A stretch of DNA of 64,000 nucleotides from Octopus sinensis. Its lineage: Eukaryota. The stretch spans positions 14,570,001 to 14,634,000 of the forward strand of contig NC_043021.1 of NCBI RefSeq assembly GCF_006345805.1, given 5' to 3'. The notes under the pieces were generated by a model, which made no database searches, was not told the DNA's origin, and saw only the letters and a program-made list of their open reading frames with translations. This document shows, one piece after another, positions 29,651 to 62,403 of the stretch. Position numbers and translations under genes: made by a program. Every line of letters starts with the position of its first letter. Within the stretch, counting starts at the first letter, position 1.

Positions 29651-31304
29651 GAGCCTCTACATTGAGCTTTAGGTAATCACAAATGAAAAAAACAAATTAG
29701 TAACTTCACTAAATTCCATTGTAGAAATTGCCTGGCAACCATGAGCTATTCAGCTAGTTCATATATATATCTTTGTATGTGTGTGTGCATGTACATATAT
29801 ATATATATATATGACTATTCATGCATTTATGTTTATATACACACTCACACCTACATATATTTTTACAAGCATTTAGTCAGTTCACTTTCTTATTCTTATT
29901 TTGTCGCATTTAGGCTACCGTTTGAATGTCTACACGCATGAGAAAGTGTGGTGGCCACTTTGACTCTGGTGTATGAATGATATACGTAAATCTATTCTTG
30001 TAACATAATCCGGTTTTATATTTAGGTCAAAAATAACTAAAGCAATCACATTGCAATAGGTAGTTATTTAATGGGAGAGGATAAATTTCAAACAAATTGA
30101 ATGCATACCTGTAAGTTTATGTATATCCATTATTTTTTTGTTTCATCATCCTCATCTTCATCACCATCATTATCATCATCATCATTATTATTACTATTAT
30201 TATTGTTGTTGTTGCTATGTACTTTACAAGCTGTGCCAAAATTTCACTGAAAGACCTGGACATTCAACTATGGGTGTCATTTATGATTAACAATGATATA
30301 TATATATATATATATACGCGAGAAAGAAGCAACAAGAATGGATAGGTTTTTAGTACAATCGTTTCATACAAGGACAGGCTTTATTAAAAGTTGCAAAAAT
30401 TACAGCATATAAACGTGTCCCATACTCATCAGCTAAAATACATGTGAGTTCTCTAGACATCCTAGTGGTTGAGGCTATACTCATGAAGTAATGTAGATAA
30501 TTAAGTAACATAAACAGATTTCCAAAGTTCATTAAAGTTCTTTAAAGATGATGTACAGTCTTATCACAGAATTTAAAAAAAGTTTTAATAGCATCACAGA
30601 GAAGGTGACCTAATCCATAGTGCACATATGAATTTCCAGAGATATGAGGAGGGATTACATACTCACAGACGACAAATTTATCCATTGTTAATCACAACGA
30701 GGTGGGTCTCAATTCCTGCTTATTAGCATTACAGAGAGGGTGAATTAATCCTTTGTATAGATGCACAATTTCCAATGGTGTAGATGTAATTTCCAGAGAA
30801 ATGAAGAGGAATTTCATATTCACAGGCGATAAATTTATCAATGGTTGAACACAATGAGGTAGGTATCAATTCTTGTTATATGATTAGGTATTTGCCACAT
30901 TAATCACATTACTGCTATTTACAAGAGGCTGTAGCTATTTAACTTTTAAAGGCTGAAGGGCTTTCTAGAGATGCAAAGAACAGAAAAGGGAAGGGAAGAG
31001 AAGAAAAGAGAGAAAATAAAGGAGGAGGGAGCAAAAAAAGGGGGGGGACTAAAAGAGAAGAGAAAAGGAAAAAGAAAATAAGAAGAAAAAGAAAAAAGAG
31101 AAAAGAGAAAGAAATATGTTTTTCTGGTACTTAATTTCTCAACAAGAATGGAAAAAGTAAACATTATAATCACCCCACATTACTGTAAACATTATAATCA
31201 CCCCACATTACTGTATTGTTAAAACAGTATAGTTTTTTTTGGTGCATCTAAGTTAGGTACCATATTCAAGTAAATTCATTTAAATTAACTTGAATCTTTA
31301 TTGC

Positions 31305-39829: not shown

Positions 39830-39842
39830 GTGCATGTACATA

Positions 39843-39878
<36 letters not shown>

Positions 39879-40149: not shown

Positions 40150-40183
<34 letters not shown>

Positions 40184-41556: not shown

Positions 41557-41596
<40 letters not shown>

Positions 41597-42157
41597 TTAG
41601 AGACAAAACCACTATTATATATATATATATGCATATGTATATATATGCATATGCATATGTATATATATGCATATGCATATGTATATATATGCATATGTAT
41701 ATATATGTATATGCATATGTATATATATGTATATGCATATGTATATATATGTGTATGCATATGTATATATATGTGTGTGTGTATGTATATATTTATATGT
41801 ATATGTGTATATATATATGTATATGTATGTATATGTATGTATATATATATGTATATGTATGGATGCCCTTCCTAACGCCAACCACTCTGGCAAACGGCCA
41901 GACTCGTCTGGTACCTGTGCCGGTGGCACGTAAAAAGCACCCACTACACTCATGGAGTTGTTGGTGTTAAGAAGGGCATCAAGCTGTAGAAACACTGCCA
42001 GATCAGACTGGGCCTGGTGCAGCCTTCTGGCTTCCCAGACCCCAGTTGAACCGTCCAACCCATGCTAGCATGGAAAGCAGACGCTAAATGATGATGATGA
42101 TGATATGTATATATATGTATGTATATATAAATTTATAGATTTGTATGTATGTGTATA

Positions 42158-42188
<31 letters not shown>

Positions 42189-42492
42189 ATTATATATATA
42201 TATCTATATATATATATATTCATCTATATATATATATATGTATACATATATGTATTTTTATATATGTATATATATATGTGTATATATATTCATCTATATA
42301 TATATGTATACATATATGTATTTTTATATATGTATATATATGTGTATATGTATATATTTATGTGTGTATATTTAACTATGTATATGTATATATGTGTGTA
42401 TATATATATATATATTTTTAAGTATATATATATATACGTATATATGTGTGTATATATATATGTGTGTGTATATATATGTGTATATGCATGTT

Positions 42493-42526
<34 letters not shown>

Positions 42527-42530
42527 CATA
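39830..42530. repeat. Very long (TA)n/(TATG)n compound microsatellite with short embedded repeat fragments
   Basis: Direct inspection. It is the source of the long Y/I/M/V/C/H/T ORFs. Confidence 0.95.
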
Positions 42531-42850
42531 CGAGGTCTTGTCAATAAATATCCAGACTGTTGCCATAGCAACTAAGCTAAAACATGCAGAGTGAAGCTGC
42601 TTGGCAAAAATTGACCTTTAACACCTCTGTGCATGCACGCTAAATTTTAACGTTCTATATCTCACCTTCGCTGTTTACGGCAGTGCTTGGAAGGAAGCTG
42701 TGTAGTGTGTGATCATCGCATTGACCTTGACAGTGAAAGTTATCGTGGCGATACCCAATGTGAGGCTTGCACAAAGCTGCAGAAAGTGTTTGGAGAGGAA
42801 TATGTGAGTGACACACAAGTGTTCAGGTGCAACGATTTGACAAGATCTGG
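42529..42850 (+). mobile_element. mariner 5' end fragment
   Basis: TACGAGGTCTTGTCAATAAATATCC TIR and CTKLQKVFGEEYVSDTQVFRC HTH-like fragment. Confidence 0.65.
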
Positions 42851-43104
42851 TAAACCTACGGATTGTACCGAGTTCCACTTTTTGCTTTGGACATGTTTTT
42901 ACAGCTTGATATTCTTCCGAACATCAATCAGCTGTAAGGGACCTGGCGGCAATGATGCTTTATTATTTCCAACAGGCAGAACGAAAATGTTGAATATGTA
43001 GAGCATTCCTCATTGGCTTCTGTGTCCTGTCCCTTTTTCTAGGACGTTTGCTTTTGGTATGAAGGAAATTTTATTATTATTTCTAGTGGATCAAAAACTA
43101 TACT

Positions 43105-43480
43105 TCTTCTTCTAACCGCTCAGTCGAAGTCGACTCTCGGTCACTCGTTGGATCAGTGTCCTCCAGTCAGTTCTATCCTGGGCCACTTCCTTCAGACTGG
43201 CTATGTCCATTCCGGTATCACTCTTGATGGTGTCAAGCCAGCGGGTTCTTGGTTGGCCTCTTCCTCTCTTGCCACTGACCATTCCGAGCATGATGTCCTT
43301 CTCCAGGGATTCTCTCTGCATAATATGACCGAGATATGCCAATCTATGCTTGGTGATCCTAGGTTCTAGCGACATTTTTGGCCTGATCTGCTTAAGAACT
43401 TCTCCATTGGTGAGCCTCACTGTCCATGGAATCCGTAAAAGTCTTCTCCAACACCAAAACTATACACGTAGCAGTATTTG
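43105..43480 (-). mobile_element. RTE (BovB-like) LINE 3' fragment upstream of GT31 copy 1
   Basis: RLAYLGHIMQRESLEKDIMLGMVSGKRGRGQPRTRWLD with an (AGA)n tail. Absent from the homologous region of copy 2. Confidence 0.85.
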
Positions 43481-43567
43481 CTTTTATATATTGTTGTTTA
43501 TTTCTCTGTTAAATTTTAAATTTAATGACCTAATTATTATTATCTTTCTATTTCAGATCTTGTAAAT

Positions 43568-44464
43568 ATGCGAATACATAAGAAAGCTATCTTAATTTTC
43601 TTTCTGTTGGCATTGTTTGGGTTTATAATCTATAGGATGTCACGTCCTTTCGATCCGACAAACCTACATCAATACAAACCTAGGTGGGGAGAGGATGAAA
43701 GGCTGAACATCGTATTTTTATTTGCTGTTAAATCTTATCCAGAAAATTATGAATTGAGGAAAGCCGTACGAGAAACATGGGGCACATATATAAACCCTAG
43801 CTCAAAGAGTAAGATATTATTTTATATGGGGCTATCTTCACGCCCTGAAGTTAACATCAAAGTTGCTGAAGAGTCCAACCATTATGAAGATATTTTCCAG
43901 GCACAATTTATCGACTCTTTTGAACGTCAGAGCCTATGTACTTTAACTGCTTTTAAGCATATCCTAGTAACATATGCTCAAATTAGATTTTTATTTAAGA
44001 TTGAAGATTCCACATTCATTAACATTCCACACCTGATACGTGTTCTGAAAAGCAATGAGTATTTACTACGTAACTTTATCATGGGCCGAATCATAAACAA
44101 TACACAACCTCAGCGAGACAAGAAGTCACCGTGGTACGTCTCAAAGGACGTATATTCACCGGATTTCTACCCAAATTACGCGCAGGGATTCGCTTATTTA
44201 TTTAGTGGGAACCTAATACAGCATTTCGTTCAAGAATCATTCAAAGTCCCTCTCCTTGGGATTGAGGACATTTTTGTAACTGGAATCTTAGCTCGGAATC
44301 TCAATGTGAATTACATACACAGCACGAAGTTTGGTATGCCAAAGGACAGTTGTGAAAACAGCCTGTATATAGCTATACCACACTTGTACACAGTCGAGGA
44401 TATGAAAAGAGTTTACATGTCCGTCGAAGTCCCAAATGAAAGGTGTGCTGAAATCAAAAGATGA
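43568..44464 (+). CDS. GT31 family beta-1,3-galactosyltransferase-like type II membrane protein, copy 1 (298 aa)
   Basis: N-terminal TM helix, then LRKAVRETWG, YEDIFQAQFIDS, FKIEDSTFIN, SPWYVS...YPNYAQG and IEDIFVTG. A splice acceptor (TTTCAG) lies 11 nt before the ATG. The exact ortholog is not assignable. Confidence 0.92.
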   Translation: MRIHKKAILIFFLLALFGFIIYRMSRPFDPTNLHQYKPRWGEDERLNIVFLFAVKSYPENYELRKAVRETWGTYINPSSKSKILFYMGLSSRPEVNIKVAEESNHYEDIFQAQFIDSFERQSLCTLTAFKHILVTYAQIRFLFKIEDSTFINIPHLIRVLKSNEYLLRNFIMGRIINNTQPQRDKKSPWYVSKDVYSPDFYPNYAQGFAYLFSGNLIQHFVQESFKVPLLGIEDIFVTGILARNLNVNYIHSTKFGMPKDSCENSLYIAIPHLYTVEDMKRVYMSVEVPNERCAEIKR

Positions 44465-45454
44465 TGGTAGAGAAAAATAAAATAAAGAGAAAAAAAAAAA
44501 ATCAACATTTAAAATGTAGCGTTTTATCTGTCTGTTCTATGTTTCAATATCTCGATTGATTTGAGAAGAAAATAGGAAATGATTCGCGAAAACTGCTAAA
44601 TGGGAGATTACTCTTTACCTTGCAACTATAACGGGCAGTTGGAGTTACGTCCCTTTATACATATCAAGTCAGAGCTTTCATCTCTTAGCTTCTCCCTCTC
44701 TTTCTTTTTCTTTCTTTCTTTCTTTCATTATCTCATCATTACTATTTGCCGATGCAGACCGTCGCTTTTTTTTTTTTTTGTCGGATTCTGCTGTGTTACA
44801 TTTTAACGAATACTAGTTTGGTCTTCCACATCACATCTTACAGAAATCAATATTTCAAATATTTCCAGATCTTTTGTGAGAAACAAAATAATCATTTTTT
44901 TTTTTTTTTTTGCGTTCATGTACGTAAGGTCGTATTATTCGATCAACAAAACCGGTTCAATTGAAATGATATCTTTTTTAGTTACGCATAAGCTACATGA
45001 AACCATTACCGACAGCATCACCATAGCAACACGTTGGCAAACACTGTGCTTAGGGTGCGAGCTAGCAAAACTGTTAGCGCGTCGAACAAAAAGCCAAGCG
45101 GCGGTTCCCTACGGTTGTTTACCTTCTGAGTTCGAATGCTAACTGGAACTTTATTGCTAGTGCTAACAAAGACATGGGATAGGACAGAAAATGGGAGCTT
45201 TGCGTCACGGAAAAGCTACATATGATCCAATCAAAAGGTAATATTTGAAACATTAGGGACAAAACATTTTCTCTCTGCATGCGTAAGCAACGATTTACAC
45301 TCTTAAATTTCAAAGAGGACCTCCCTCCATCCACCTACTTTGCTACCCTTCCAACCTGAAAATTAACTTATATGCATCATATGAACTTCGTGTACAATCC
45401 ACACATGCCCCTCATGCTGGGCTCCCTCAGCACACAAACATACGAGCATCACAT

Positions 45455-45960
45455 CTAATAATAATGAAATTATTGTATAGGTGCAGGAGTGGCTGTGTGG
45501 TAAGTAGCTTGCTTACCAACCACATGGTTCCAGGTTCAATCCCACTGCCTTGTGAGTGGATTTGGTAGACGGAAACTGAAAGAAGCCTGTCGTATATATG
45601 TATGTTCTGTGTCTGTGTTTGTCCCCCTAGCATTGCTTGACAACCGATGCTGGTGTGTTTACGTCCCCGTCACTTAGCGGTTTGGCAAAAGAGACCGATA
45701 GAATAAGTACTGGGCTTACAAAAGAATAAGTCCCGGGGTCAAGTTGCTCGACTAAAGGCGGTGCTCCAGCATGGCCGCAGCATGACTGAAACAAGTAAAA
45801 GAGTAAGAGTAAGAGAGTGCTCAGGTGCACCACAACCTGTCAAAAGTGTGTATAAAGCATATGCAGTAATGTACAAATGTCTGGAAAGTGAAGAGTGTAC
45901 GAGTCAGATACATGCTTGCGTGTGTATGGAGGGGAGAAAATCAGGTGTAGTGTAGGCGAA
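45455..45960 (-). mobile_element. Short LINE 3' tail (family of 1304-5697) interrupted by a family A SINE (45480-45810)
   Basis: TTATTGTATA|SINE|GTGCTCAGGTGCACCACAAC rejoins to the tail seen at 1310-1345. Confidence 0.8.
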
Positions 45961-46222
45961 TATATTACAAGATATGCGATATACACAAACTTGTCTTTCA
46001 ACAACTGCATAATTTTTCATTCTCATAAACCAGATTCAATGTCGAAATATGTTTTTTAAAAAAAAAGTATGTGTAAGATAATGAAATTTCACAATCATGT
46101 TTATGCATCCTAATACGACCAAGATACATAATGCAAATATACAGGTACAGGTGTGTACACATGCGTACTTTGTTTGAATGCGTGTGTGTGTATGTGTGTG
46201 TCTATCTATCTATCTATCTATC

Positions 46223-46253
<31 letters not shown>

Positions 46254-46347
46254 GTATTCTGGCCGAAATCAGATCGCCATGTTGATTCGTTAGCTACTGC
46301 ACGCATTTTTTTCTCTCCTTCTTTCTGTGTTTTTCTCTCTCTGTGTA

Positions 46348-46385
46348 TCTTTCTGTTGAAGAGCGTAGGCTCGAAACGTTAAAGA
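46348..46385 (+). ncRNA. Minimal hammerhead-like motif with CUGUUGAA core
   Basis: UCUUU-CUGUUGAA-GAGC(GUAG)GCUC-GAAA-CG-UU-AAAGA. Stems I and II are perfect and stem III (ACGU) is palindromic. Confidence 0.6.
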
Positions 46386-46484
46386 CTTGTTTTATTTATA
46401 TTTCCTGAGCGCCATACTAATACAATTGTTCGTTTGTTTTCCACCTGCCTTCGTCTTTTGTTTATTTTCATAAAGCTTCCCGTT

Positions 46485-46805
46485 ATATATATATGTATAT
46501 ATATATGTATATATATATGTATATATATGTATATATATATGTATATATATATGTATGTATATATGTATGTATATATGTATGTATATATATATGTATATAT
46601 ATATGTATGTATATATATATGTATGTATATATGTATGTATATATGTATGTATATATATATGTATGTATATATGTATGTATATATGTATGTATGTATATAT
46701 GTATGTATATATGTATGTATATATATATGTATGTATATATGTATGTATATATATATGTATATATGTATGTATATATGTATGTATATATGTATGTATATAT
46801 GTATG

Positions 46806-46836
<31 letters not shown>

Positions 46837-46851
46837 ATATATATGTATGTA

Positions 46852-46884
<33 letters not shown>

Positions 46885-46917
46885 ATATGTATGTATGTAT
46901 GTATGTATATATGTATG

Positions 46918-46965
<48 letters not shown>

Positions 46966-46967
46966 AT

Positions 46968-47017
<50 letters not shown>

Positions 47018-47030
47018 ATATATATATAAA
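46485..47030. repeat. (TA)n/(TATG)n microsatellite
   Basis: Direct inspection. Confidence 0.95.
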
Positions 47031-47109
47031 CATAGAGAATAAAATCCTTAAAATTAATTGATTTTATCAATGGCCAGCATATAAAAACCTTTTAGGTAAA
47101 ATACCTTTA

Positions 47110-47445
47110 TAGAGATATATAACTGTATTGGGTAGAACTATATTTAAGGGTAGAAAAGCTATTATGCCTTTAGGCTGAAAGAGTGTGTCGAATATGTTCT
47201 GCCACTTCAAATATTCACTCCACAATTAAATACACAGGTTGTAAGCGGGAAAGCAGTCTGTCTAAAAATTCATAAAACTGAATTGCTTTATGAATTTTTA
47301 GACTCTGCCTTCCCACTTACAACCTGTGTATTTAATCATGGAGTGAATATTTGCAGTGATAGGATGTATTCAACGCATTCCTTCAGCATAAAGGCATAAC
47401 TTTTGTACCCTTAAGTATAATTGTACCCAATACAGTTATCTCTCT
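47110..47445. repeat. Imperfect fold-back element (~165 bp arms, ~10 nt loop)
   Basis: TTAAATACACAGGTTGTAAG...CTAAAAATTCATAAA pairs with TTTATGAATTTTTAG...CTTACAACCTGTGTATTTAA. The outer arms also pair. Confidence 0.8.
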
Positions 47446-47766
47446 CTCTGTATATGAGAGAGAAAGGCACATGTATATGTTGTATATATATATATATATA
47501 TATCCATATCTATATATATCATCATCATCATCATTGTCGTCATTTAACATCTGCTTTCCATGCTAGCATGGGTTGAACGGTTTAACTGTTATCTGGCGAA
47601 CCAGATGGCTACACCAGGCTCCAGTCTTGATCTGGCGGAGTTTCTACACCTGGATGCCCTTTCTAACGCCAACCACTCCGAGAGTGTAGTGGGTGCTTTT
47701 ACATATCACCAGCACGGGGGCCAGTCAGGTGGTACTGGTAACGACCTCGCTTGAATTTTTTGTTTA

Positions 47767-47799
<33 letters not shown>

Positions 47800-47804
<5 letters not shown>

Positions 47805-48190
47805 GGATTGGACAAAATATAGGAAACACATTAAAATTTCAAACAAATTAATTTTAATATGAGGTAGGACTGCCTTTGGCAGTAATTACAGCTTAAATTC
47901 TACAAGGTATGGACTCGTACAAAGTTTGAATTGTCTCCAAAGGAATTTTTGTCCGTTCTTCAGCTAAAACAGTCTCTGGTTCTTGTAAAGATGATGGTGG
48001 AGGATATCAACTCCTTACTTGTTTTTCTAAAATGTGCCATAAATGTTCAATGATATTGAGATCTGGGGACTGTGGTGGCCAGATAAGATATTCAGCTTCA
48101 CTAGAATGTTCCTTGTGCCTTTCAGTAACAACTTTAGCTGTGTGAATTGGTGCATTATCATCCTGAAAGATTGCATTTCGGTTTTCATGG
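47800..48190 (-). mobile_element. Tc1-type transposase 3' fragment
   Basis: IFQDDNAPIHTAK...WPPQSPDLNIIEHLW, with TA and CAGGGATTGGACAAAAT at the end. Confidence 0.85.
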
Positions 48191-48545
48191 TAATTGTTTG
48201 CGACTGCCATTCACAGCATTGAACACAGCTGCATTTTGGTGTCGCATTTCAGGGTAAGTCAGAAGGTTACCTGCAATTTGGGTCTCAGCCATAAACCAGC
48301 ATGTCTTGGAATATTTACACTTGCATTCCCGAAATAAATTTCCAGAACTTACCATATAAAAATGACATTTGGAAAAATCACATTTCTTTTGTGGTTCAGT
48401 GTATACACACATGTTTAAAAGTAAAACACAAAAAACAGAAACAGGGAGTGAACAGTGAATAAGTGGGATTAGTTTGGGGCTCAGATAAAATGGAGAAAAA
48501 ATACATGTCTGGATTAATGGTTGCATACACACACAGAGATTTATA

Positions 48546-48577
<32 letters not shown>

Positions 48578-48602
48578 CATATACATACATACGTAGATAC
48601 GT

Positions 48603-49155
48603 TTAGCCGCTCTCCAGCCATCTATTTAAAACTGTATACAGCTATGGTACGACCACACTTGGAATTCGCATCATCAGTTTGGAATCCCTATCTTGCTCAG
48701 AACATTGACCTCCTGGAATCTGTCCAGAGACGTGCAACCAAACGCATACCCTCCATCAGACACCTACCATATTCTGAGCGCCTTGTTTCCCTGGGCATGG
48801 ATTCACTGAAGCTCCGGCGTCTAGCGACGGACTTGGTAAACACCCACAAGGTTATCAACCACCTCACCAACAACAACACTGAACACCTTTTTGATCTCCA
48901 TGTGTCTAACACACGTGGACATGCCTACAAAGTCAGAAAACAGCACAGCTCCCATGACTTTCGGAAACATTTTTTCACGCTCAGGGTTGCTGAAGCGTGG
49001 AATAAACTGCCCGCATCAGTTGTTGACTGCCATGACACTGCATCCTTTAAGGCCCTCATGCTTTCCGAAATCCGTCGAAACTACACCTGATTATATATAC
49101 ACTTTGGATGAGTTGTAGTGCACCTGAGCACTGTACACAATTATTATTATTATTA
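48603..49155 (+). mobile_element. 5'-truncated copy of the CR1-like LINE at 51850-56155
   Basis: Nearly identical to 55600-56150, with an (ATT)n tail. Confidence 0.9.
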
Positions 49156-49172
49156 TGCAAACATTTTATATT

Positions 49173-50285
49173 CTAGCAGAAAAACCACCCTCTAGGCGGT
49201 TTTCTGCTGGCCACTTAAAAATATTTTCACATTTGATTACCAATTTTAATAATTTTTGATATTTTACATCTAATTATTTCTTTGTATAATAGTGCTCACT
49301 TGCTTAGTAAATATTGCTTTCGTTATTTTATCACAGTCATAATGTCTCTTTTTTAAACAAACATCAAAGTAGTCCAACTACAGAGGATGAAGCAGTTTAT
49401 CAAGTTTTACCTTCCCCTCAAAGCAATATTGAGATTTCAGTTCAGCAGCTGTATATACCCTTGACTTTGTTGCTTCATAACATCCAGATAAATGGATACT
49501 TTTTAACAAAATTTTCTACAAATACCGCTTAGATATTGTGGTTTCAGAATATATAGGGATTTGTAGGAAAGAATTTTTGTGAGGGGATGGAGAGAGGAAT
49601 TTTGGAAAACTCACATGATCCAACTTTTTTACCTTCTAACTTTCAGGAAAGTTTATACAAATACCTTTTAATTGGTATAGATTATGATTATAAAGAAATT
49701 TGTTGGGAAGATTTTTTCCAAGGAGGCGGGGAGAGGAGTTTCAGTAAAATGGAGTTTCAGATCAAGAAGACAAAATAAGTTAGAACTACTCTGTCTTGAC
49801 AGGGATTTCCCCCTTTTCTTTTAAACCACTGCCTTCAAAATGATAGGTGGTGGTGGGGGAAGGGGCATCTTTGTATGAAATAGTTTTGAAAATTTTTTTT
49901 TACAACTCCCTCCCTCTTCATCTCATTCCGGAGCTATTTTGGCCAATTTTTTTTTTTGCATTTCAAAACCATGGGAGGAGCCTTTGTGCCAAAAAAAATT
50001 TTTTATCATTTTTAATATTTTCAGAGGGGAAAAGTGAGTGATTTAAGGGAGGTTTGAATACTATTTCTGGCACATCCCAAGACATCCCTCCTCATTTTTT
50101 AATCGCTCTCGCATGTATCGATGTTTTACAATATTTTTCTTCCCATAAATACATTTATATGCTATAAAAAATAAAATTTGAAAAATTACGATATTTTTGC
50201 AACCTCAGTCCCTGGCTGCAATTGTTTCTGTTTATAATTTAAAATATTGGAGAGCCTGAGAATATCATTGCTGGCATTTATCCAC
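49173..50285 (-). mobile_element. Second, inverted copy of the 1.1 kb hairpin-terminated repeat
   Basis: Reverse complement of 15225-16334, with a terminal hairpin at 49173-49210. Confidence 0.6.
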
Positions 50286-52060
50286 AGTAATTTAAATAAA
50301 GAGTTATGTAAACGATAATTCATTTCAATAGCATACTTTTCTGTTAGAACATGTTTTTCTTACACAAACACGGCTTCACTTGATTGAGGTGAGGGTAAAA
50401 ATTTAGATTACAATTTTTTTTTGTTGCTTATATTTCACCAATGGACCACGCGTGTATTACTTCAGTACCATCATTCCATAAAGTGTGTTTAACCGGAGAA
50501 AAATATTGAAAAAAACGCCAATACACATGAGAGTGAAAATGGAGGGTGGTTTGAGCTGTGTTAGAAACAACAGCCAAACGTCCCTTGAATTGTTCACCTT
50601 TTCCTCTGAAAATATTTACAACATTTTTTTTTTAACTGGAAAGGCTCCTCTCATGGCTTTTAAGTTAAAAAAAAATGGCCAAATTCAGTCTGGATAGTTA
50701 TTATTGTAAGACTTATGGGCATTCCAAACAGCTATAACAACAAAATTATTTAATTTTTTTTTTTCTTTTACAAAAATTATACCAGTATATTAAAAGATTA
50801 TCATTCAATAAATTATGTTTTTACATTACATATATAAACTGTGTGTTTTGCAAATAGCGAATTAAAACTTGAAATGGAAACTTTGAAATAGAGGGTGAGG
50901 GTTATTGCAAATGAAAATGGAATACTCCACAATCCGTCTGGATAGTTATTATTGTAATGCTTATATGTAATGCATTCCAAACAGCCATAACAAAAAAAAT
51001 CACTTCTTAATTTTTTTTACAGAAATTATACTGGTACATTAAAAAATTTTCATTCAATAAATCATTTTTACATTACGTATATAGAACAAACTGTGGGTTT
51101 ATTCTGTATAAAACTTGAAATCGAGAGTGAGAGTCTTTGCAAATGAAAACCTAATACTCTACAGTAAATGCAATGAATATTTAAATTTGCAACAAATTGG
51201 AGTTCAAAAATTCAATAAACTTCAGTAGGAAATTTCTTGGAACATGAAGTTATGAAAAACTTTCCAGATGGTCAAGCCATTAATAATTGCTTTCAATTTA
51301 GTAACTGTTACATACTTAATTAATATGCAGCTTTCTCCATTATAATATAGGTATGCTTGTATATACACACACATACATATATATATATCATGTATTATAT
51401 ATCATACATATATATATCAGTATTATATATCATGGCGACCTGGCAGCTGGAGTCTTAGAGTAGCTGTCCACCGAAGTTCCATATAATATGGGAATGAAAA
51501 AGGAAAAGGAGGAAAATACAATGTTACTAAAACAAAGACACATTCACAAGTAGACAAACAAATGGTTTGATTAAGGTATAATCAATTTGGCGAGGAAACT
51601 AAAGATAAAATATTACGACGATGACCACCACAGATCTACAATGGAAGAATTCACCACGTGTAGTTGAGGGTAAAAGAAATCGTTGAACGACAGTAAGTAC
51701 GTCCAAAATTTATAAAGCAGTGACATACATACATACATAGATACTTGTAGCACACATATATATACGTGCAGAGTGAAAATAAATCACACTATTTAATGTG
51801 ACGGACTACACTGCAAAAAAATCAAATTTCATTTCTGTTTACAAACTTTCTCCGTGTTATACGCACAAATACTTTTATGTATACACACGCAATATTTAAG
51901 AAAAAAAGGAATATACACAAAAAGAACGAAACATGTGTATATACACACACAATATTTAAGAACAAGGAATATACACAAAAAAGAACGAATCAAAAACAAA
52001 TATTTTATATTTTACTTTTATCGTATTGTTGTTCGGGAGAGAACCAAACCACAGATCGCC

Positions 52061-52429
52061 ATGGTGAAATCCATAGCGGCGTGCGATAAGACTGGTCGCT
52101 GCTCTAAAATAGAACACTGCCCAGAAAATCACACCTGTCCATCTGTACGGAACCCGAAAATACGTTCCGTAATCGCTGGGTCGAATGTGGGACATGTCTC
52201 ATTTCTGTCTGCCTCCAATGTGCCACGGACTTTCAGAAGATCCCAGGCCAAAAAAAGAGCCATCATAATGCTATGATGGATAGACTCTGGAAGATGGTTC
52301 AGCTTAAATCTTGGACTTTTCAGTGTCAGGCCTGCGTGCCTCCACAACCGACGATTGTGTCTCCCCCTGCCACTCCCGTGGAGGAGGCGGAACAGCAACA
52401 GCAGCAACAACAAAATCAACCACAACCAG

Positions 52430-52480
<51 letters not shown>

Positions 52481-53269
52481 TAGAGCAGCAGCAGCAGCAA
52501 CAACAAAATCAACCACAACCAGAGCAGCAGCAACAACAAAATCAACCACAACCAGAGCAGCAGCAACAACAACATCAACCAACAACAGCAACAACAAAAT
52601 CAACACAACCAGAGCAACAGCAGCAACAACAACAACATCAATTGACCAATGCGGTTCTTGCAGAACTGCAACAATCGATCTGTGCTTTAAAAGGGGAAGT
52701 AGCAGAATAAAAGCAACCATTCAGGTTGGACTCCACAATGAGGGGTCTTATCGGAATACTCTGCTAAAGAACCTCCCTGTACCTGTACCTCTTGTCGCAT
52801 TTAAGACCGCGGATTCTGCCACCCATGAAGTCATTGCCATTGGGGTGCCAGAAGACATGGCTGATCTTCAGGCTTTTGCTGCCAACTCAGCCAAAGACCT
52901 AGGCTGCGTTCCCCCAACGGGTGCTATCCGCCGCCTGGACGACCTGGCCCAAAACCTAGGCTCATCAAGTTGTCTTTTACGGACCCCACTGAGGCAACCT
53001 CTTACCATCTGGCCTCAGTTAAAGCTGGGCGGGAAAATCAGACCACCTTCCGAACACGCCCAGGCTTACCGTCCGATGTACGTCCGAAGCTACGTGTAGT
53101 GGCTTCCCTGAATAGGAACTCAGCTCTACAGGAAAGCTTCAGTCTTCGGGAAGATGGACAAATCTGGAGATTTGTCAAGACTGCTGAAATGTGGAAGAGA
53201 GATACCAGCTGGTCTGAGTGCTCTCTACCCACAATAACTAAAAAGACTACAGCAACTCAGGGAAACTAA
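52061..53269 (+). pseudogene. LINE ORF1 (PHD-like zinc finger, polyQ linker, coiled coil), frameshifted as assembled
   Basis: GCCATGG start at 52061. One-base shifts near 52138, 52705 and 52935 reconstruct CPIC...WVECGTCLISVCLQC...WTFQCQAC-polyQ-...PRLIKLSF. Confidence 0.75.
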
Positions 53270-53299
53270 GCCAGAACAACCTGCCATCCTCTACACACC

Positions 53300-56086
53300 A
53301 TCATAAACTGCGAGCAGGGTACAAATTGTTGTCCTTAAATGCTCGCAGTTTATGCAACAAAATATATTTGTTCAATGCCTACGTCAGAAGTGTTGACCCT
53401 GACTTCATCACTGTTACGGAAACATGGGCGCATTCCTTACTCTGTGATGGGGTTTTCAACATTACGGGGTACAACCTCTTCCGTAAGGACCGCACTACCG
53501 CCGTGGTGGTGGTGTGATGGTCTACGTTCGTTCAAATTTTTTAGTAATTCTTTGTGCCGATTTGAACGAATCACAAGAAGAAGTTTTTTTCTGTGACGTG
53601 CGTATGACCATGTCAACACTCTGCTTGGCGTTGTTTATCGTCCCCCAAGTTACCATCGGGACACACAGCTTTGCAATGTCCTCCGAGCTGCTGCCAGAAA
53701 ACAGCCACTTATGTTTTATTGCAGGCGATTTCAATCATCCTGAGATCGATTGGGAGACCTTCCATTGGCCACAGAGTGCAAACGATTTTGTTGAGCTTGT
53801 GCTGGACTCAAACTGGTCACAAGTAGTCACCTCTCCAACAAGAGGCGACAACACCTTGGACCTGCTCTTCACCACAACTCCTGAAGCGGTTATCAATTGC
53901 ACTACGGAGGAACCGCTAGGTGACTCTGATCATGCTATGATCATCGCCAATCTGGCTCTTGCGGGCAACAAAAACCTGAACCATCTCCAATCTGCTTCCT
54001 TCGATTGGAAGAGAGCAGATTGGAACCTGTACCACACTGAACTACAGCACCCAAACTGGCGTGAATTCTACAACTCTGGAGATGTGAATACTATACTCCA
54101 GAGTATCCTGGACTCAATATGGGCAGCATGTGCAGCATCAGTGCCACGTAAACAAAAAAAGAAGAACCGCCCCAAAAGGGCAATTTGGGAAACTTCAGCC
54201 GTCCGACTTGCCAGGAGGGGACGTTGGACTGCTGAACGGGAATACAGGTTGCATAAATCAGACACCAACAGGAAGAAGCGGAATAAATCCTCCAACCATC
54301 TCAAGCAAGTGACAAAAAAAGCAGTGCTTGAATTTGAACAGTGCATAGCAGCCAATCCTGACAGCAAGGTTTTCTGGAAATATGTGCACTCAAAGCAGAG
54401 ACCTCACTCTCCAGTGGCCCTCTTCGCAACCCTCACACAAACCAGATCACTGACGACCCCAAGGAATGCGCAGAACTCATTGCCGAGTGCTATGCAAACA
54501 TATTCACTGTTGAAAGTCAAAATGTACCATCTTCACCATCACTAACAGCAAACTCCATAACAACTATGGAATTTACACCTGCAATGCTGCGACGTCACCT
54601 TCAAAATAAGCGCAACTATGCCTCCCCTGGTCTCGATGGAGTTACATACCTGCTTCTCAAACGTGGCAGGCACTTCCTTTTACACCAGCTTTCTATTTTC
54701 TTCCAGTACTGTCTCAACAATGGTGCTACTCCGGAGCAGTGGAAAACTGCCAGTGTCATTCCTCTGTTCAAAAAGGGCGACCCCGCACATCACCTGTCAA
54801 CTATCGCCCAGTCAGTCTCACTAGCTGTATTGCAAAACTGATGGAATCGTGTGTCAGAGAAACACTCTGGAACTTCTGGAGCTCTCACAGTCTCATCCAA
54901 CCCTCACAATATGGATTTGTCCCTAACTCCAGCTGCAGTGACCAGCTTGTCGAGTTCCTTGAGGACATTACTCAGATTACTGACAGTGGCTCATGGGTGG
55001 ATGTTGTCTACCTTGACTTTGCTAAGGCTTTCAACTCTGTGCCACACAAAAGGCTTATGGTGAAACTCTCTGCAATGGGTGTGGGGGATGACCTTTTAAC
55101 TGGTTGAAATCCTTCATCCTCAGCCGAAAGGAGGTAGTCACAGTTCTAGGACAGCACTCTACACTATATGAGATGTCATCGGGTGTACCACAGGGATCTG
55201 TCCTTGGTCCCCTCTTGTTTGTGGCATACATTAACGACATAGATGCCAATTTAAAGAATGCCACAGTATTGAAATATGCAGACGACATCAAGCTGTACCT
55301 TGAAATCAAGAGGACAGATCCTGATGTCTACAACTCTTTCCTGCAATCAGACCTAGACACAATGCAGCAATGGATCACAGACTGGCAACTGAAACTGGCT
55401 GTGGACAAGTGTACCACCATGCATTTTGGGAGAAAAAACCCTGCGTTCACATACTCCCTCCACAACACTGATATCAAGAAATCCTCTTGCGAGCGTGACC
55501 TAGGCATCACTGTCAGCAGTGATTTGCGTTGGTCAAAGCATATCTCTAAGATTGTCAAGAAGGCCGAGGGTGTCTTGGCATCACTCAGCAGGTCTTTTGT
55601 TAGCCGCTCTCCAGCATCTATTTAAAACTGTATACAGCTATGGTACGACCACACTTGGAATTCGCATCATCAGTTTGGAACCCCTATCTTGCACAGAACA
55701 TTGATCTCCTGGAATCTGTCCAGAGACGTGCAACCAAACGCATACCCTCCATCAGACACCTACCATATTCTGAGCGCCTTGTTTCCCTGGGCATGGATTC
55801 ACTGAAGCTCCGGCGTTTGGCGACAGACTTGGTAAACACCCACAAAGTTATCAACCACCTCACCAACAACAACACTGAACACCTTTTTGATCTCCATGTG
55901 TCTAACACACGTGGACATGCCTACAAAGTCAGAAAACAATACAGCTCACATGACTTTCGGAAACATTTTTTCACGCTCAGAGTTGCTGAAGCATGGAATA
56001 AACTGCCTGCGTCAGTTGTTGACTGCCATGACACTGCATCTTTTAAGGCCCTCATGCTTTCCGAAATCCGCCGAAACTACACCTGA
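53300..56086 (+). pseudogene. LINE ORF2 (endonuclease-reverse transcriptase), frameshifted as assembled
   Basis: Overlapping ORFs 53326, 53514, 54566, 54739, 55104 and 55640 tile one APE-RT protein. Confidence 0.9.
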
Positions 56087-56849
56087 TTATATATACACTT
56101 TAGATGAGTTGTAGTGCACCTGAGCACTGTACACAATTATTATTATTATTATTATATATCCCTCTCTCTCTTTCGGAGAGGCACTGAGCAGCTATACGCA
56201 CACATACACTCACAGCAGTAACTTCCACCTACCGAATTCAATCACAAAGCTCCGGTCGGCTCGGGGCTATAGTGGAAGATACCTACCCAAAGTGCCACGC
56301 AGTGGGACTGAACCCGAAACCATGTAGCTAGGAAGCAATCTCCCTAACCACACAGCCATGCCCGATATATATATATATATATATATAAATACAAAAATAG
56401 GACAAGAAAGCACAACATCCAGACAGTTATGTGAAACAAAGAAGGGACAACAAAATATCCAGACAAATGATACAAGGAAAAGAAGGACGGATCGTTCGGA
56501 GTTTTCTATCCTCAGTCGAGTTCCAGATTATCTTTGCAATTTCGGTTGGTTATACTCGAGATTGGTCCAATCTGGCCAGCCCCAAGGTAAAAATAAGCTA
56601 AGAGCATTACATTCCTTGGCATGCTGGTGGCAGGTGAAAAGCACCCACTACACTCTTGGAGTGGTTGGAGTTAGGAAGGGCATCGAGCTGTAGAAACCTT
56701 GTCAGATCAGATTAGAGCCTGGTGCATCCTCCTGGCTTGCTAGTTCTCAGTTGAACCGTGGCAACCCATGCCAGCATGGAAAGCGGATGTTAAACAATGA
56801 TAATATATAACATCTGACTGTCTAAAGAGGCCATCGAAAAGTAACTAGT

Positions 56850-57910
56850 GGCAAATTCTCTTGAAAATGGATAGCATTTGGCTTCGTGATGGAAAGGGTC
56901 TTAGTCCTCAAGAGCATTCAATGCTGACGTGGTTGCTACATTAGGGGATGGCACACCATCTTTATCAAGAGTGTGGGCAGCTGAATTTAGGAGGGGAAGG
57001 GAGAGTCATGAAGATGGACCAAGGTCTGGATGTCCGAGGAAAACATTGATCATGTTCACCACATGCTGATGGATGACAGGCGATTGACCATAAATCAAAT
57101 AGCCATTGGCACCAGCATATGCTGTGAGAGCATTGAGAATATTCTGCAGAATGAACTTGGCATGATGAAGGTTTCTGCTTGGTGGTTGCCATGTCTTCTG
57201 ACACCAGATCAAAAGTGCACAAGGCTGATCACATCACAAGAAAATCTGACCTTGTTTGAGGCAGATTCAGCAGGTTTTCTTGAAAGTTTCTTATGCCAGG
57301 ATGGGTGTTGGCTTCATCACTTTGAACCAGAGACAAAGAGACAGTCCATGCAGTGTAATCACCCTTTCTCACCTGCTCCAAAGGTGGCCAAGATTGTTTC
57401 ATCTGCAGGGAAGGTGATAGCCTCAGTGTTTTGGGATTCAAAAGAAATTGTGTTTTTTGACTATATTGAAAAGGGCCACACCATCAGTAGAGAGTATTAT
57501 GCCAACTCGCTGAGACAGTTACAAAAAGCTATCAAGGACCAAACGTCCAGGAAAACTGACAAAAGAGGTCTTGTTTCATGAGGACAATGCACCAGTCCTT
57601 AGTTTCGATAGCTGCTGTACATGACTGTGGCTTTAAACTCGTTGATCAGCCTCTCCATTCTCCTGATTTGGTCTCATCTGACCATCATCTGTTCTCCAGG
57701 ATTGAAAAAACGCTTGGCTGAGAACCAGTATCACAGTGGTGATGACATAATATCTGCTGTTAAGGAGTTTTTTGAGCAACAGCATGCAAACTTCTTCACC
57801 AATGGAAGAAGTGAGTGGACCGTAGGGGATATGGGGGGGCTATATTGAAAAGTAAACTGCATTTGATTACAATCCACTAGAACCTATGAACTTTTCAGCT
57901 GGCCCTCATG
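56850..57910 (+). mobile_element. Degenerate mariner transposon
   Basis: DDRRLTINQIA...KVSAWWLPCLLT...GKVIASVFWDS...YYANSLRQL, with a TIR-like AACTTTTCAGCTGGCCCTCA end. Confidence 0.88.
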
Positions 57911-58653
57911 TGTGTGTGTGTGTATGTGTGTGTCCTGCATATGATTTTAAACTGCATCTGGTTGTGGGGCTCTGGTACAGCAATCCCAAGGTTTTTGAAG
58001 GTGTGTGGAATGACCTCTCAGCTGCTATTTTTTCCCGGGTCAACCCAGACCCGGAGTTGTGGAACCTGTAATTTCTTTACTCGGTATCAATATTATTCAC
58101 TTGTGGTAAGAACCAACATTGGCTTAAGGTTAATGGCTAGTTCTATATAAACCCATATGACCTAGTTCTATGTAACAAGTGTCGCATTGACCAAATGCCT
58201 TCCTTTCCCTTTCTTTCTTCCACTTTGGCTGTAGATTTGTTTTGGCTTTGAAGAAAACTTTGGGCTCTGAAAGAAGCTTTTTAGTTGATTAGTCAATATC
58301 ACTGAGCTATGAATGCACCCAAACACATATCGGAAACAGGTGTAACCCTATATTAAATAAATATATACTTATAACCTATTATTTCTGTTTATTTTATGTT
58401 CCCCTCTGTAAAAGCTTAACATCATAACTACACACTGGAATTATGGGTTTACAAATTTGACTTCTGTGATTTGGATTACCAGAAGTACAAGACTGTTCAC
58501 AAGATATTTTTGTTAGCCTGGTGTGTTTTTATCTGCAGACAGCTTAAGAAATATTTTGCCTGGGTTACTAATTCTACATATATGTATGAGTGTATGTGCA
58601 AGTGTAACTATATATGTATCAATATATATATATATATATATGTATGTGTATAT

Positions 58654-58728
<75 letters not shown>

Positions 58729-60330
58729 AGGCGCATGGCTCAGTGGTTAGGGTGTCAAGCTTACAATCGTGAGGTTGTGAGCTCGAATCCTGGACCGGGC
58801 TGCATGTTGTGTTCTTGAGCAACACACTTTATTTCACGTTGCTCCAGTTCCCTCAGCTGTACAAAGGAATTGCGACATCACAGGTGCCAAGCGCTGTATC
58901 GGCTCCTTTGCCTTTCCCTTGGATAACACTGGTGGCGTGGAGAGGGGAGGCCAGTATGCATGGGCAACTGCTGGTCTTCCATAAACAACCTTGCCCAGAC
59001 TTGTGCCTTGGAGGGTAACATTCTAGGTGCAATCCCATGGTCAGTGTCATGACCAAAGGGGGTCTCAGAATTTAGGTAAGAATGTTTGCTTCCCAACCAC
59101 ATGGTTCTAGGTTCAGTTCAAATGTGTGGCACCTTTGGCAAGTGTCTTCTCTTACGACTCCTGGCCAGGATTTGGTAGACAGAGACTGAAATAAGATCAT
59201 CATTTCCCTGTTACACTCCAACCTTTCATCATTTGATACTGGATCACCTCCTCCGATGCTTCCTGTGTTATGGCAAGACACCTGCTTCTGTCTTTCTATC
59301 TCTTTGTCACACTCTAACTTTTCATCTTCTGATACAAGTCCCCTCCTCAAACACTCCTGTCCCTCTCATAATTCCTTGTCTTGTGAGTTACTCGGTGACC
59401 CTGCCAGTGCTGGTGCCACATTAAAAGCATCCAGTCCACAGTCCACACTGTAAAGTGGTTGGCATTTGGAAGGGCATCCAGCTGTAAAAATCATATCAAA
59501 ACTAACCTCACCTATGCTGGTGCCATGTAATAAGAGCTGAATCCATTCTGTGGAGTGGTTGGTGTTAGGAAGGGCATCCAGCCGTAAAATCCCTGCCAAA
59601 AGAGCCTAGGGTAGTTTTTCTACCTGACTGGCTCCTGTCAACCATCCTATCCATGCATGAATGGAAGATGGTCATTAAACAATGATGATGATGAGATATA
59701 TATATATATATGTATATATATGCACACACATGTGCATGTATGTATGTATGTATGTATGTATGTGTGCATGTGTGTTTGTCTCCTTGTCTTGACATCAGAT
59801 GGTTGTCGTAGATGAGTGTCTCTGTCATACAAGCAGTGCCGTTTATTTCTAATATTTTGCAAGACCATATCAGGCCATGGTGAAATATTATCTTAGAAAC
59901 AGATGAAGAAGGTGAAGATGATAATAATAACGATGGTGATGTGGTTCTCTCCTGGAACAGAAATTTCTTATTTGGCTCACTTGTCCTATCATTTAAGACA
60001 GTAAAGATTTATTTGAGGAAGATTTTGCTACTATTTCTAACAGTCAGAATGGACATGTAAAACTTCCTTAATTTGAAGGAGATTTCGATTATTTCCAACA
60101 GACACAACGAAAAAGTTGAATATGTAGAGCATACCTCATTGGATTATGTGCCCTTTCCCTTTTTCTAAGGCGCTTGCTTTTGGTATGAAGGAAATTTGAC
60201 TATTATTTCTAGTGGGTCGAATCACCATACAGATATTCCCTTTTGCTTTTCTATCTTGTTGTTTGTCTTTGTTAAATTTTAAATATGATGACCTAATTTT
60301 CATTTTCTTTCTATTTCAGATCTTGTAAAT

Positions 60331-61236
60331 ATGCGAATACATAAGAAAGCTACCTTAGTTTTCATCCTGTTGGCATTGTGTGGGTTTATAGTCTACAAGA
60401 TGTCGTACTCTTTTGACCCAACAATCCTACACCAATACAAACCAATTTGGGCAGAGGATGAAAGGCTGAACGTCGTGTTCTTATTTGCTGTTAAATCTTA
60501 TCCAGAAAATTACGAATTGAGGAAAGCCATAAGGGAAACATGGGGCACATATATAAGCTCTGGCTCAAACAGTAAGATATTATTTTACATGGGGCAATCT
60601 TCACGCCCTGAAGTTAACACCAAAGTTGCTGAAGAGTCCAACCATTATGAAGATATTTTCCAGGGAGATTTTATAGACTCTTTTGAAAATCAGAGCCTGT
60701 GTACTTTAACTGCTTTTAAATATATGCTGAGAGTGTATGCTCAAATTAGATTTTTATTTAAGGTTGAAGATTCAACATTTATTAACATTCCACGCCTTAT
60801 ACGTGTTCTGAAAAACAGAAGAGAACTGCTGCATAGCTTTATCATGGGTCACATCACAAATCGTACCAAACCAGAACGAAACGAGAAGTCACCATGGTAC
60901 ATATCAGAGAACGTATATCCATCAAATTCCTACCCAGTTTACGCACAGGGAGCTGCTTATTTGCTAAGTGGGGACCTAATACAGCAGTTGGTTAGAGAAT
61001 CATTCAAAGTCCCCCTCATTTGGATTGAAGACATTTTTATAACTGGAATTTTAGCGCAGAATCTCAATGTGAATTACATACACAGTAAAAAGTTTGGTTC
61101 GCCAGAGGATAGTTGTGAAAACGGCGAGTACATAGCCATATCACGTTTGCACACAGTCGAGGCTATGAAACGCGCTTACCTAGCCATTGAAATCCCAAAT
61201 GAAAGGTGTGCTTATGGAATAAAACCCAAAAGATGA
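60331..61236 (+). CDS. GT31 family beta-1,3-galactosyltransferase-like type II membrane protein, copy 2 (301 aa)
   Basis: Same motifs as copy 1. My manual alignment gives 73 differences in 294 positions (~75% identity). The acceptor 11 nt before the ATG is the same. Confidence 0.92.
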   Translation: MRIHKKATLVFILLALCGFIVYKMSYSFDPTILHQYKPIWAEDERLNVVFLFAVKSYPENYELRKAIRETWGTYISSGSNSKILFYMGQSSRPEVNTKVAEESNHYEDIFQGDFIDSFENQSLCTLTAFKYMLRVYAQIRFLFKVEDSTFINIPRLIRVLKNRRELLHSFIMGHITNRTKPERNEKSPWYISENVYPSNSYPVYAQGAAYLLSGDLIQQLVRESFKVPLIWIEDIFITGILAQNLNVNYIHSKKFGSPEDSCENGEYIAISRLHTVEAMKRAYLAIEIPNERCAYGIKPKR

Positions 61237-61739
61237 TGACAGAGATAATTTAAATCAAGAGAAAAAAAAGAAGTTATACTGTAACGTTTTATCCGTCTAT
61301 GTTTCGACATCTTGTTTGATTTGAGAAGAAAAACTAAGAATGATTCGAGAAAACTGTTTCATGGGAGATTACTCCTTACCTTGTAAATATAATGGGCGTT
61401 TGGAGTTACGTCCCTTTATACATATCAAGCCAGAACTCTCATCTCTCAGTTTCTCTCTCTCTCTTATCATTATTGTTTGTCGACACATTTTTTTTTTGTC
61501 GAACTCTGCTGTTTTATATTAAAAAAAAAAAAACAACACTAGTTTGGTCTATCACACCACATCTTACAAAAATCAATATAACACTTTTTTTTTCCTGTTC
61601 ATGTACATACGGTCGTTAATCATCAACAAACCGGTTCAATTAAAATAATTACCACCTTTTTACCTTTTAGTTGTTTTTGTTACTCAGATGCTACACGAAA
61701 TGATTGTCAATGGTCTCGCCACCACAGCACATTGGCAAA

Positions 61740-62403
61740 TGCTGCGAGCTGGCGAAACTGATAGCGCGTCAAACAAAATGCTAAACAGCAATTCCCTTCG
61801 GGTGTTTAATTTCTGAACTTAGAGTTTGTCTATAATCCTTTAGGGTACATGATGAGCAATGGGGCTGATGCAATTGACAAGCACACTCCACACAAAATTT
61901 CGGGCCTCATACCTATAGTAAAAAAAAAAAGATTATTATTATTGAGAGGACGGGAAGCTGGGAGAATCTTTAGCATACCAGGAAAAATGCTTAGCAATAT
62001 TTCGTTTGTCTTTACGTTCTGAGTTCAAATCTCACGGGAGTCAAATTTACCTTTCGCCCTTTCAAGGTCACTAAATTAACAACCAGTTGAGCATTGGGAT
62101 AGATTTAATCGATTTCCCCCCTCCCTCAAAATTGCTGGTCTTGTACCAAAATTTGAAACCATCATCATCATCATCATCAATATTATGAAGGCGGCCAGCT
62201 GGCAGCATCATTAGCGTGCTGGATGAAATGCTTAGCAGTATTTCACCCGTCACTACATTCTGAGTTCAAATTCTGCTGAGGTCGACTTTGCTTTTATCCT
62301 TTTGGGGTTGATAAAATAAGTACCAGTTATGCACCGGAATCGATGTAATTGACTTAACCCCTTCCCCCAAATTTGAGCCCTTCTGCTTCCAGTAGAAAAG
62401 ATG

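Follow-up and report, generated by a model that had tools for sequence, protein, structure and literature searches.

In a 64,000-nt stretch of Octopus sinensis DNA (NC_043021.1, positions 14,570,001-14,634,000 of the forward strand; hereafter the window, whose own positions serve as coordinates below), two similar sequences, copies A and B, encode proteins of glycosyltransferase family 31 (GT31) that have lost the canonical site for Mn2+ and the uridine diphosphate (UDP) sugar. The third Asp of the DxD motif (Asp3) is absent from all nine sequences of the clade to which the copies belong and present in all 29 single-domain relatives, which upholds the loss of this site proposed in a first-pass annotation of the window. 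On balance, we regard the protein as a likely GT31 pseudo-enzyme of incirrate octopods: folded, anchored in the membranes of the secretory pathway, probably non-catalytic or nearly so, and perhaps binding a glycan or an active partner protein.

Both copies are uninterrupted open reading frames (ORFs) on the plus strand (Table 1). Translation and hydropathy analysis bore out their earlier description as intact ORFs with a transmembrane anchor and the motif EDIF(V/I)TG: the hydrophobic N-terminal segment reaches 17-residue Kyte-Doolittle maxima of 2.49 in copy A and 2.24 in copy B, and in the structure model of copy A this anchor is a helix of residues 2-25. The copies are identical at 221 of 297 residues in an ungapped alignment (74%), which agrees with the amino acid divergence of about 25% noted before. 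The Pfam profile Galactosyl_T (PF01762) matches copy A with 116.6 bits and copy B with 137.1 bits (curated cut-off: 23), and the Fringe profile just reached 19.5 bits with one copy only. The NCBI Octopus sinensis protein P0003 ("isoform X2", 305 residues) equals copy A letter for letter with seven additional N-terminal residues, and copy B is 99% identical to P0006, an Octopus vulgaris protein named "isoform X3" (301 residues). No third GT31 copy was found in the window by blastn or tblastn.

The structure model of copy A had a predicted local distance difference test score (pLDDT) of 90.4. Its best structural match was human B3GALT5 (8zwp; Foldseek template modelling (TM) scores 0.75/0.84; Z 30.8, root-mean-square deviation 2.1 Å over 249 residues), followed by B3GNT2 (6wmo and 7jhk; Z 28.4). 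Weaker Z scores were obtained with the CHSY/CHPF chains and C1GalT1 (19-21) and with metal-independent enzymes of the GT-A fold (11-14), and a search of the ESM Atlas returned generic GT31 clusters only. We conclude that the protein belongs by descent and fold to the B3GALT-related group of GT31.

In the HMMER alignment, the triplet EDS of both copies occupies the very columns of DSD in B3GALT5 and of DDD in B3GNT2; translation confirmed the previously reported readings KIEDSTFIN (copy A) and KVEDSTFIN (copy B) around it. EDS was present in none of the 155 background GT31 domains, and x-D-S in seven, all within multi-domain proteins. Across the clade, the motif reads EDS, DDS, HDS or KDS (the last in Argonauta), and DVK in the distant protein P0049. 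Thus, the Asp3 position is Ser in all eight octopod sequences and Lys in P0049, and position 1 is Glu, Asp, His or Lys, with Asp in both other copy-A orthologues. We therefore rejected EDS as a selected motif. The "retention of EDS", which the first-pass annotation had used as an argument for selection, fails for the same reason, and a Glu at the first position is nothing unusual for an active GT-A enzyme, in which this residue may be Asp or Glu and the third position is the metal ligand (PMC7948508). Since position 1 varies among the orthologues and allows both residues in active enzymes, Glu146 is incidental. Judged from the alignments, the informative changes are Asp3 to Ser, the loss of the C-terminal His (C-His), Lys188 to Pro and Lys124 to Cys, and not EDS itself. 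We rejected a sequencing or assembly error, as Ser148 is also present in O. bimaculoides, O. vulgaris, Argonauta and two further database records. Gene conversion as the source of the shared Glu146 left no sign: the four O. sinensis and O. bimaculoides proteins differ at 29 paralogue-diagnostic sites versus 0 species-shared sites at the protein level, which also shows that the duplication is older than the split of these two species. The observation is genuine, and it has better support than the argument originally given for it.

The changes extend to the whole metal and diphosphate site. We transferred the substrate contacts described for B3GALT5 (PMC11969544) to the octopus residues via the sequence alignment, and not via distances in the model. 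The B3GALT5 side chains that hold the metal or the pyrophosphate are D158, H285, K197 and Y128 (PMC11969544). All four are changed, D158 to S148, H285 to P/S/M271, K197 to P188 and Y128 to F/T/Y118, position 118 being Phe or Thr save for one Tyr. In the uracil site, K134 is lost (C124) and the Leu that cradles the base is Gln121; D126 is kept (D116). This Leu and this Lys are present in 20/20 of the closest canonical relatives, and Gln was found in 8/8 clade sequences compared and Cys in seven octopod sequences. Translation likewise confirmed the readings RQSLCT (copy A) and NQSLCT (copy B), noted earlier in place of the usual NLTLKT. An N-glycosylation sequon at residue 120 (43925-43933 versus 60688-60696) is kept in copy B, Argonauta and P0049 and lost in all three copy-A sequences.

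A His lies nine residues past a conserved Cys in 19 of the 20 relatives (the twentieth has an insertion). This column is Pro, Ser or Met in the clade, and a His one residue later (H272) is found in one of the eight octopod sequences. A rescue of the metal site by His272 of copy A was considered and rejected, the other octopod sequences having Y, F, R, G or N at this position. In cells, B3GNT2 activity is not restored by variants mutated at the third Asp alone or at the C-His alone (PMC7948737). Metal-independent enzymes of family GT14 rely on Arg/Lys for the diphosphate (PMC7948508); no invariant basic residue is present in the octopods at the aligned positions 118, 148, 188 and 271.

The sugar-binding side and the core of the protein are conserved. 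The ribose contacts S56 and D147 and the donor-sugar contacts K144 and E233 are kept, with position 146 free; on the acceptor side, W189, Y204 and the base D234 are kept, and S215 is replaced by an invariant Gln206. Of the motifs defined in PMC8022947, motifs I (RxxIxxTW), III (x-G after an aromatic or hydrophobic residue) and V ((E/D)DVxxG) are retained, with R64, R68, T70, W71, G173, E233, D234 and G239 invariant in 8/8 clade sequences. Motif IV (GxxYxxS, the G-loop) is intact in both window copies, and its G207 is Ser in 3/8 clade sequences. In total, 26 family-conserved core positions are untouched, and the changes are concentrated in the donor/metal site. The five sugar-side residues K144, W189, Y204, E233 and D234 are jointly kept in 8/8 clade sequences versus 10/36 domains without Asp3 and 55/76 domains with it; because the clade sequences are related, 8/8 corresponds to about three independent lineages. 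Retention of the xED motif proved weak as evidence of catalysis, since the base Asp alone is kept in 33/40 other Asp3-less domains. The combination of Gln121 and Gln206 occurs in 0/155 background domains. Four further residues, K65, Y74, S90 and N96, are invariant in the clade, rare elsewhere and situated in or close to helices one and two. The corresponding helices of B3GNT2 mediate its dimerisation (PMC7948737), and by analogy those of the octopus protein might form a dimer or partner interface.

The clade comprises copies A and B of O. sinensis and of O. bimaculoides, copy B of O. vulgaris, two further records, Argonauta hians (44-50% identity) and the distant, C-terminally short P0049 (30-35%). 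It thus reaches the Argonautidae, with eight octopod sequences from two families. In the tree, these eight sequences form one group (support 99/97), which P0049 joins (99/95) on a long branch that makes its placement less sure. The stem branch of the clade is long, and congeneric orthologues are 85-88% identical. In P0049, the metal Asp is replaced by Lys and the uracil Lys (position 124) by Arg, which marks this protein as the best candidate for metal-independent activity. The single-domain background consisted of the 20 closest and nine named sequences and represents the nearest relatives, not a random GT31 sample. All 29 keep, besides Asp3, the first Asp/Glu, the uracil Lys, the G-loop Gly, the base and the C-His. 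The relatives were taken from the best 68 of 150 matches; the other 82 and five further sequences were omitted as possibly of human origin. The best-scoring canonical single-domain relative was P0048 (189.7 bits; 31-32% identity). Word-index searches returned octopod sequences only and no named squid or cuttlefish orthologue. Among 21 of the 26 cephalopod entries in the PMC8022947 supplement, none belongs to the clade, and three strings typical of the clade gave 0 matches there; two squid sequences of this supplement read NDE at the motif. Many database relatives (among P0023-P0088) carry 2-7 tandem GT31 domains. From 46 tandem proteins with 133 domains, some of which may be gene-prediction fusions, 126 domains were kept (83 with Asp3, 42 without it and one with a gap). 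Among the two-domain proteins, 14/29 combine an Asp3-less first domain with an intact second domain, recalling B3GLCT.

The protein is maintained. Its reading frame is open, with no stop or frameshift, in eight octopod sequences down to 44-50% identity. Comparison of copies A and B over 294 codons (Nei-Gojobori) gave a nonsynonymous rate (dN) of 0.144 and a synonymous rate (dS) of 0.324, i.e. a ratio of 0.45 (bootstrap 95% interval: 0.30-0.68) for this one pair of DNA sequences. Selection on the copies is purifying but relaxed, and the neutral ratio that the first-pass annotation had named, in combination with a lack of expression, as speaking against a selected function lies outside the interval.

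These results suggest that an octopod lineage of B3GALT type gave up the Mn2+/nucleotide-diphosphate half of the active site. Lacking the metal and any compensating basic residue, the protein would be unable to turn over UDP-sugars. Its retained acceptor pocket could then hold a glycan or glycoprotein, and/or the protein could pair with an active GT31 enzyme; such binding or pairing might tune or assist glycan synthesis, as CHPF, Cosmc, the N-domain of B3GLCT and B3GNT8 do in vertebrates. The drift of motif position 1 (D/E/H/K) is as expected if positioning of the donor is no longer needed. Intact cephalopod relatives like P0048 could be the parent or the partner, and squid and octopus sequences of the PMC8022947 supplement are further candidate partners. 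The function could be that of a lectin, a regulator of a partner or a catalyst of new chemistry, and several features weigh against an inactive protein. The octopus proteins keep the base and motif I; of the known pseudo-enzymes, Cosmc has lost xED, and motif I is missing from both Cosmc and CHPF. The joint retention of the five sugar-side residues fits glycan binding and, equally, surviving catalysis. The retained S56, D116 and D147 and the invariant Gln121 and Gln206 line the pocket, which suggests that a ligand is still there. In P0049, Lys at Asp3 and Arg at position 124 would be changes of the type seen in metal-independent enzymes, and a basic residue from elsewhere in the octopod sequence (K55, K254 or K280) may serve the diphosphate.

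The last points would also fit an inverting enzyme that works via Asp234 with altered, metal-free chemistry, using a cytidine monophosphate (CMP) sugar or another monophosphate donor, a lipid-phosphate donor, a glycan (for transglycosylation or hydrolysis), or a diphosphate held by recruited basic residues. CMP-sugar transferases are metal-independent. We consider such an enzyme fairly unlikely. It draws support from the joint retention of the base, K144, E233 and the acceptor stack, much rarer in other Asp3-less domains; from the invariance of 4/5 acceptor positions versus 44/206 core columns; from the kept ribose and uracil contacts with their two new glutamines; from the Lys of P0049; and from GT14 and bacterial GT6, which lost DxD independently and stayed active (PMC7185993). 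However, the sole basic phosphate contact is Pro in the octopods and no aligned position gained a basic residue, the base Asp is so often kept in Asp3-less domains that it may be structural, and motif position 1 and G207 are variable. Furthermore, we found no active GT31 enzyme without DxD in the open-access literature, and an earlier proposal of a metal-independent B3GLCT was overturned (PMC13597200). An elaborate version, in which a metal-free donor site was rebuilt around the retained base and both sugar subsites, two glutamines read the donor and one gene offers two specificities through its alternative last exons, seems improbable. If metal-free catalysis were nevertheless true, this would be the first metal-independent GT31 enzyme found by our literature searches, and an octopod-specific glycan linkage would be predicted.

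It is unlikely, too, that the protein is a weak metal-dependent transferase of the B3GNT8 type, in which E/D146, D147, Ser148, water and, for O. sinensis copy A, His272 would bind Mn2+ loosely and a complex with an active paralogue would boost the low activity. B3GNT8 itself, with the first Asp replaced by Gln and the C-His by Arg, remains active, though 20-fold less so (PMC7948737); it is reported to form a complex with B3GNT2; and a water molecule takes the place of the C-His in several GT-A families (PMC7185993). But a change of the third Asp is not listed for B3GNT8 in the accessible part of PMC7948737, and the octopus protein loses Asp3 together with the C-His. In addition, two orthologues have His or Lys as residue 146, and the His of copy A recurs in none of the other octopod sequences. 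Finally, a decaying duplicate or pseudogene that lost the motif by drift would account for the fast evolution (the long stem branch and the divergence of congeneric orthologues) and the relaxed dN/dS, but is very improbable given the open frames in two families, a dN/dS interval that excludes 1, the clustering of the changes in the donor/metal site with an untouched core, and the existence of a spliced NCBI model. Of these readings, we retain the pseudo-enzyme.

The two copies are most probably alternative last exons of one gene that arose by duplication of its terminal exon. A single-copy upstream exon, mostly 5' untranslated region (UTR), has an ATG at 30101 directly after an in-frame stop, which adds seven residues. 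When the window was searched for the back-translated NCBI N-terminus followed by a donor, the stretch 30101-30115 alone matched (0.02 matches expected by chance; 2/100 shuffles reach 1). Joining 30110 to 43557 yields the NCBI protein P0003 exactly (305 residues), and joining it to 60320 yields an open frame of 308 residues; the implied introns are 13,446 bases (to copy A) and 30,209 bases (to copy B) long. Both copies share the acceptor and the 11 bases preceding the ATG, and blastn and tblastn revealed the upstream exon only once in the window. The first-pass annotation had called the copies tandem paralogs: this stands for the duplicated coding sequences, but probably not for two separate genes, since one upstream exon can be joined in frame to both. 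Five further ATGs precede position 30101 in the upstream exon, and such upstream ORFs could regulate translation.

The other, less likely possibility is that A and B are independent genes, with a separate promoter and first exon for copy B in the interval of 45.1-60.1 kb. In its favour, the junction from 30110 to 60320 comes from the DNA sequence, a short non-coding first exon would escape the searches run, and the O. bimaculoides counterparts of A and B are named separately, without isoform labels. Two genes are doubtful because the duplicated unit contains only the terminal coding exon with its flanks, i.e. the intron end, the exon and the 3' flank; the shared acceptor and pre-ATG bases and the open frames of 305 and 308 residues from a single upstream exon also speak against them. 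The NCBI labels "isoform X2" for A and "isoform X3" for the protein 99% identical to B fit one gene as well. NCBI numbers isoforms by length. The tree does not settle the order of the single Argonauta sequence relative to the duplication. An insertion of about 380 bp (43096-43476), absent from copy B, splits the copy-A unit in the intron just upstream of copy A. It contains a minus-strand open frame without a Pfam match, which we take to resemble the C-terminus of a long interspersed nuclear element (LINE).

Table 1 Features of the two GT31 copies and their surroundings in the window
Feature	Positions	Strand	Remarks
Upstream exon, single-copy, mostly 5' UTR	29914..30110	+	Acceptor inferred at 29912-29913; donor GTAAGT at 30111; 5' boundary inferred from sequence only
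Duplicated unit around copy A	42962..45129	+	Intron 3' end, exon and 3' flank; window-versus-self blastn, alignment
Copy A, terminal coding exon	43557..44464	+	Acceptor AG 43555-43556; ORF 43568-44464, 298 residues; type II membrane protein of GT31 fold
Copy A, Q121-S-L-C124	43928..43939	+	Gln for uracil-cradling Leu, Cys for uracil-binding Lys
Copy A, degenerate DxD, E146-D147-S148	44003..44011	+	Ser148 in place of the metal-binding Asp; roles from PMC11969544 and PMC7948508
Copy A, P188, W189, Y204, Q206	44129..44185	+	Pyrophosphate Lys replaced by Pro; acceptor-stacking Trp and Tyr kept; Q206, new invariant G-loop residue
Copy A, xED motif, E233-D234	44264..44269	+	Position of the catalytic base; kept
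Copy A, C-His position, P271	44378..44383	+	Alignment
Duplicated unit around copy B	60088..61816	+	Window-versus-self blastn, alignment
Copy B, terminal coding exon	60320..61236	+	Acceptor AG 60318-60319; ORF 60331-61236, 301 residues; 308 residues if joined to the upstream exon
Copy B, degenerate DxD, E146-D147-S148	60766..60774	+	Translation, alignment

The remainder of the window apparently consists of microsatellites and broken transposons, as seen from 11 other open frames scanned with Pfam; Rfam gave no match in the window. At 1441-5302, a 275-bp unit resembling a LINE 3' end at about 55800-56088 is present in 14 tandem copies (97% matches). Between the two copies lies a broken LINE retrotransposon with endonuclease and reverse transcriptase pieces (53487-56152), preceded by a glutamine-rich ORF (52273-52710); a second LINE 3' piece (48603-49156) is 97% identical to that of this element. 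Fragments of DDE transposases were found at 57012-57578 and 32701-33300 (PF01359 and PF13843).

Inactive GT31 domains are already known from Cosmc (PMC7185993), CHPF (PMC13389171) and the N-domain of B3GLCT (PMC13597200), and these precedents limit the importance of the octopus pair. What is new is a stand-alone lineage of B3GALT type that lacks both metal ligands yet keeps motif I and xED, in two versions probably located on alternative last exons; we found no paper on it in the open-access literature, the scope of our search, with subscription journals and preprint supplements lying outside it. As a pseudo-enzyme, it would be an independent invertebrate case of this type and a natural test of how a GT-A fold becomes a glycan- or partner-binding protein, and its database name (lactosylceramide GlcNAc-transferase, B3GNT5-like) would mislead octopus transcriptome studies. 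If still an enzyme, it would reveal a novel way of doing without metal in a family whose catalysis is described as metal-dependent. Counting and quantification of the two copies are also affected by their probable layout as alternative last exons. In the oviducal gland of O. maya, a "B3GNT5" transcript rises at fertilisation and falls after heat (PMC8976471); it shares the annotation name and is not tied to the pair described here.

With human B3GALT5 and B3GNT2, the octopus proteins share the fold, the type II anchor, motif I, the xED base, the acceptor Trp and aromatic residue, the uracil Asp and the donor-sugar Lys and Glu at about 25% identity, but they lack both metal ligands, the pyrophosphate Lys, the uracil Lys and mostly the pyrophosphate Tyr, and have Gln121 and Gln206 instead as new residues. 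P0048, by eye the counterpart of the Watasenia scintillans protein B3GALT_03367 in the PMC8022947 supplement, has the same C-terminal cysteine pattern as the octopus pair; unlike the pair, it keeps DDD, the uracil and pyrophosphate Lys and the C-His, and the tree does not resolve it as the sister group. B3GNT8 is B3GALT-related as well and has an eroded donor/metal site (first Asp to Gln, C-His to Arg; PMC7948737). It differs from the octopus pair in its remaining low activity, its separate vertebrate origin and, as far as the accessible part of PMC7948737 reports, in having no third-Asp loss. GT14 (core 2 GlcNAc-transferase and xylosyltransferase) and bacterial GT6 resemble the octopus proteins in having a GT-A fold without DxD but with the base; metal-independent GT-A enzymes use Arg/Lys for the diphosphate (PMC7948508), whereas the aligned octopod positions have none.

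Cosmc (C1GALT1C1) is, like the octopus pair, a stand-alone, membrane-anchored GT31 protein without DxD. It is Fringe-related, lacks the xED and motif I that the octopus proteins keep (PMC7185993, PMC8022947), and acts as a chaperone of one client in the endoplasmic reticulum; the lamprey Cosmc of the PMC8022947 supplement reads QDSTF, by eye apparently at the DxD site. CHPF1, CHPF2 and the N-domain of B3GLCT have the GT31 fold, bind neither metal nor UDP and assist an active domain (PMC13389171, PMC13597200), and in B3GLCT a Gln and a Glu of the N-domain block the nucleotide site (PMC13597200). Unlike these multi-domain, Fringe-related proteins without a base motif, the octopus protein has one B3GALT-type domain only and keeps the base. 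The octopus pair thus shows the loss of DxD and C-His typical of pseudo-enzymes but not that of xED or motif I, and it is orthologous neither to Cosmc nor to CHPF. Judged from these comparisons, it may work like Cosmc, CHPF and the B3GLCT N-domain without being of their exact type.

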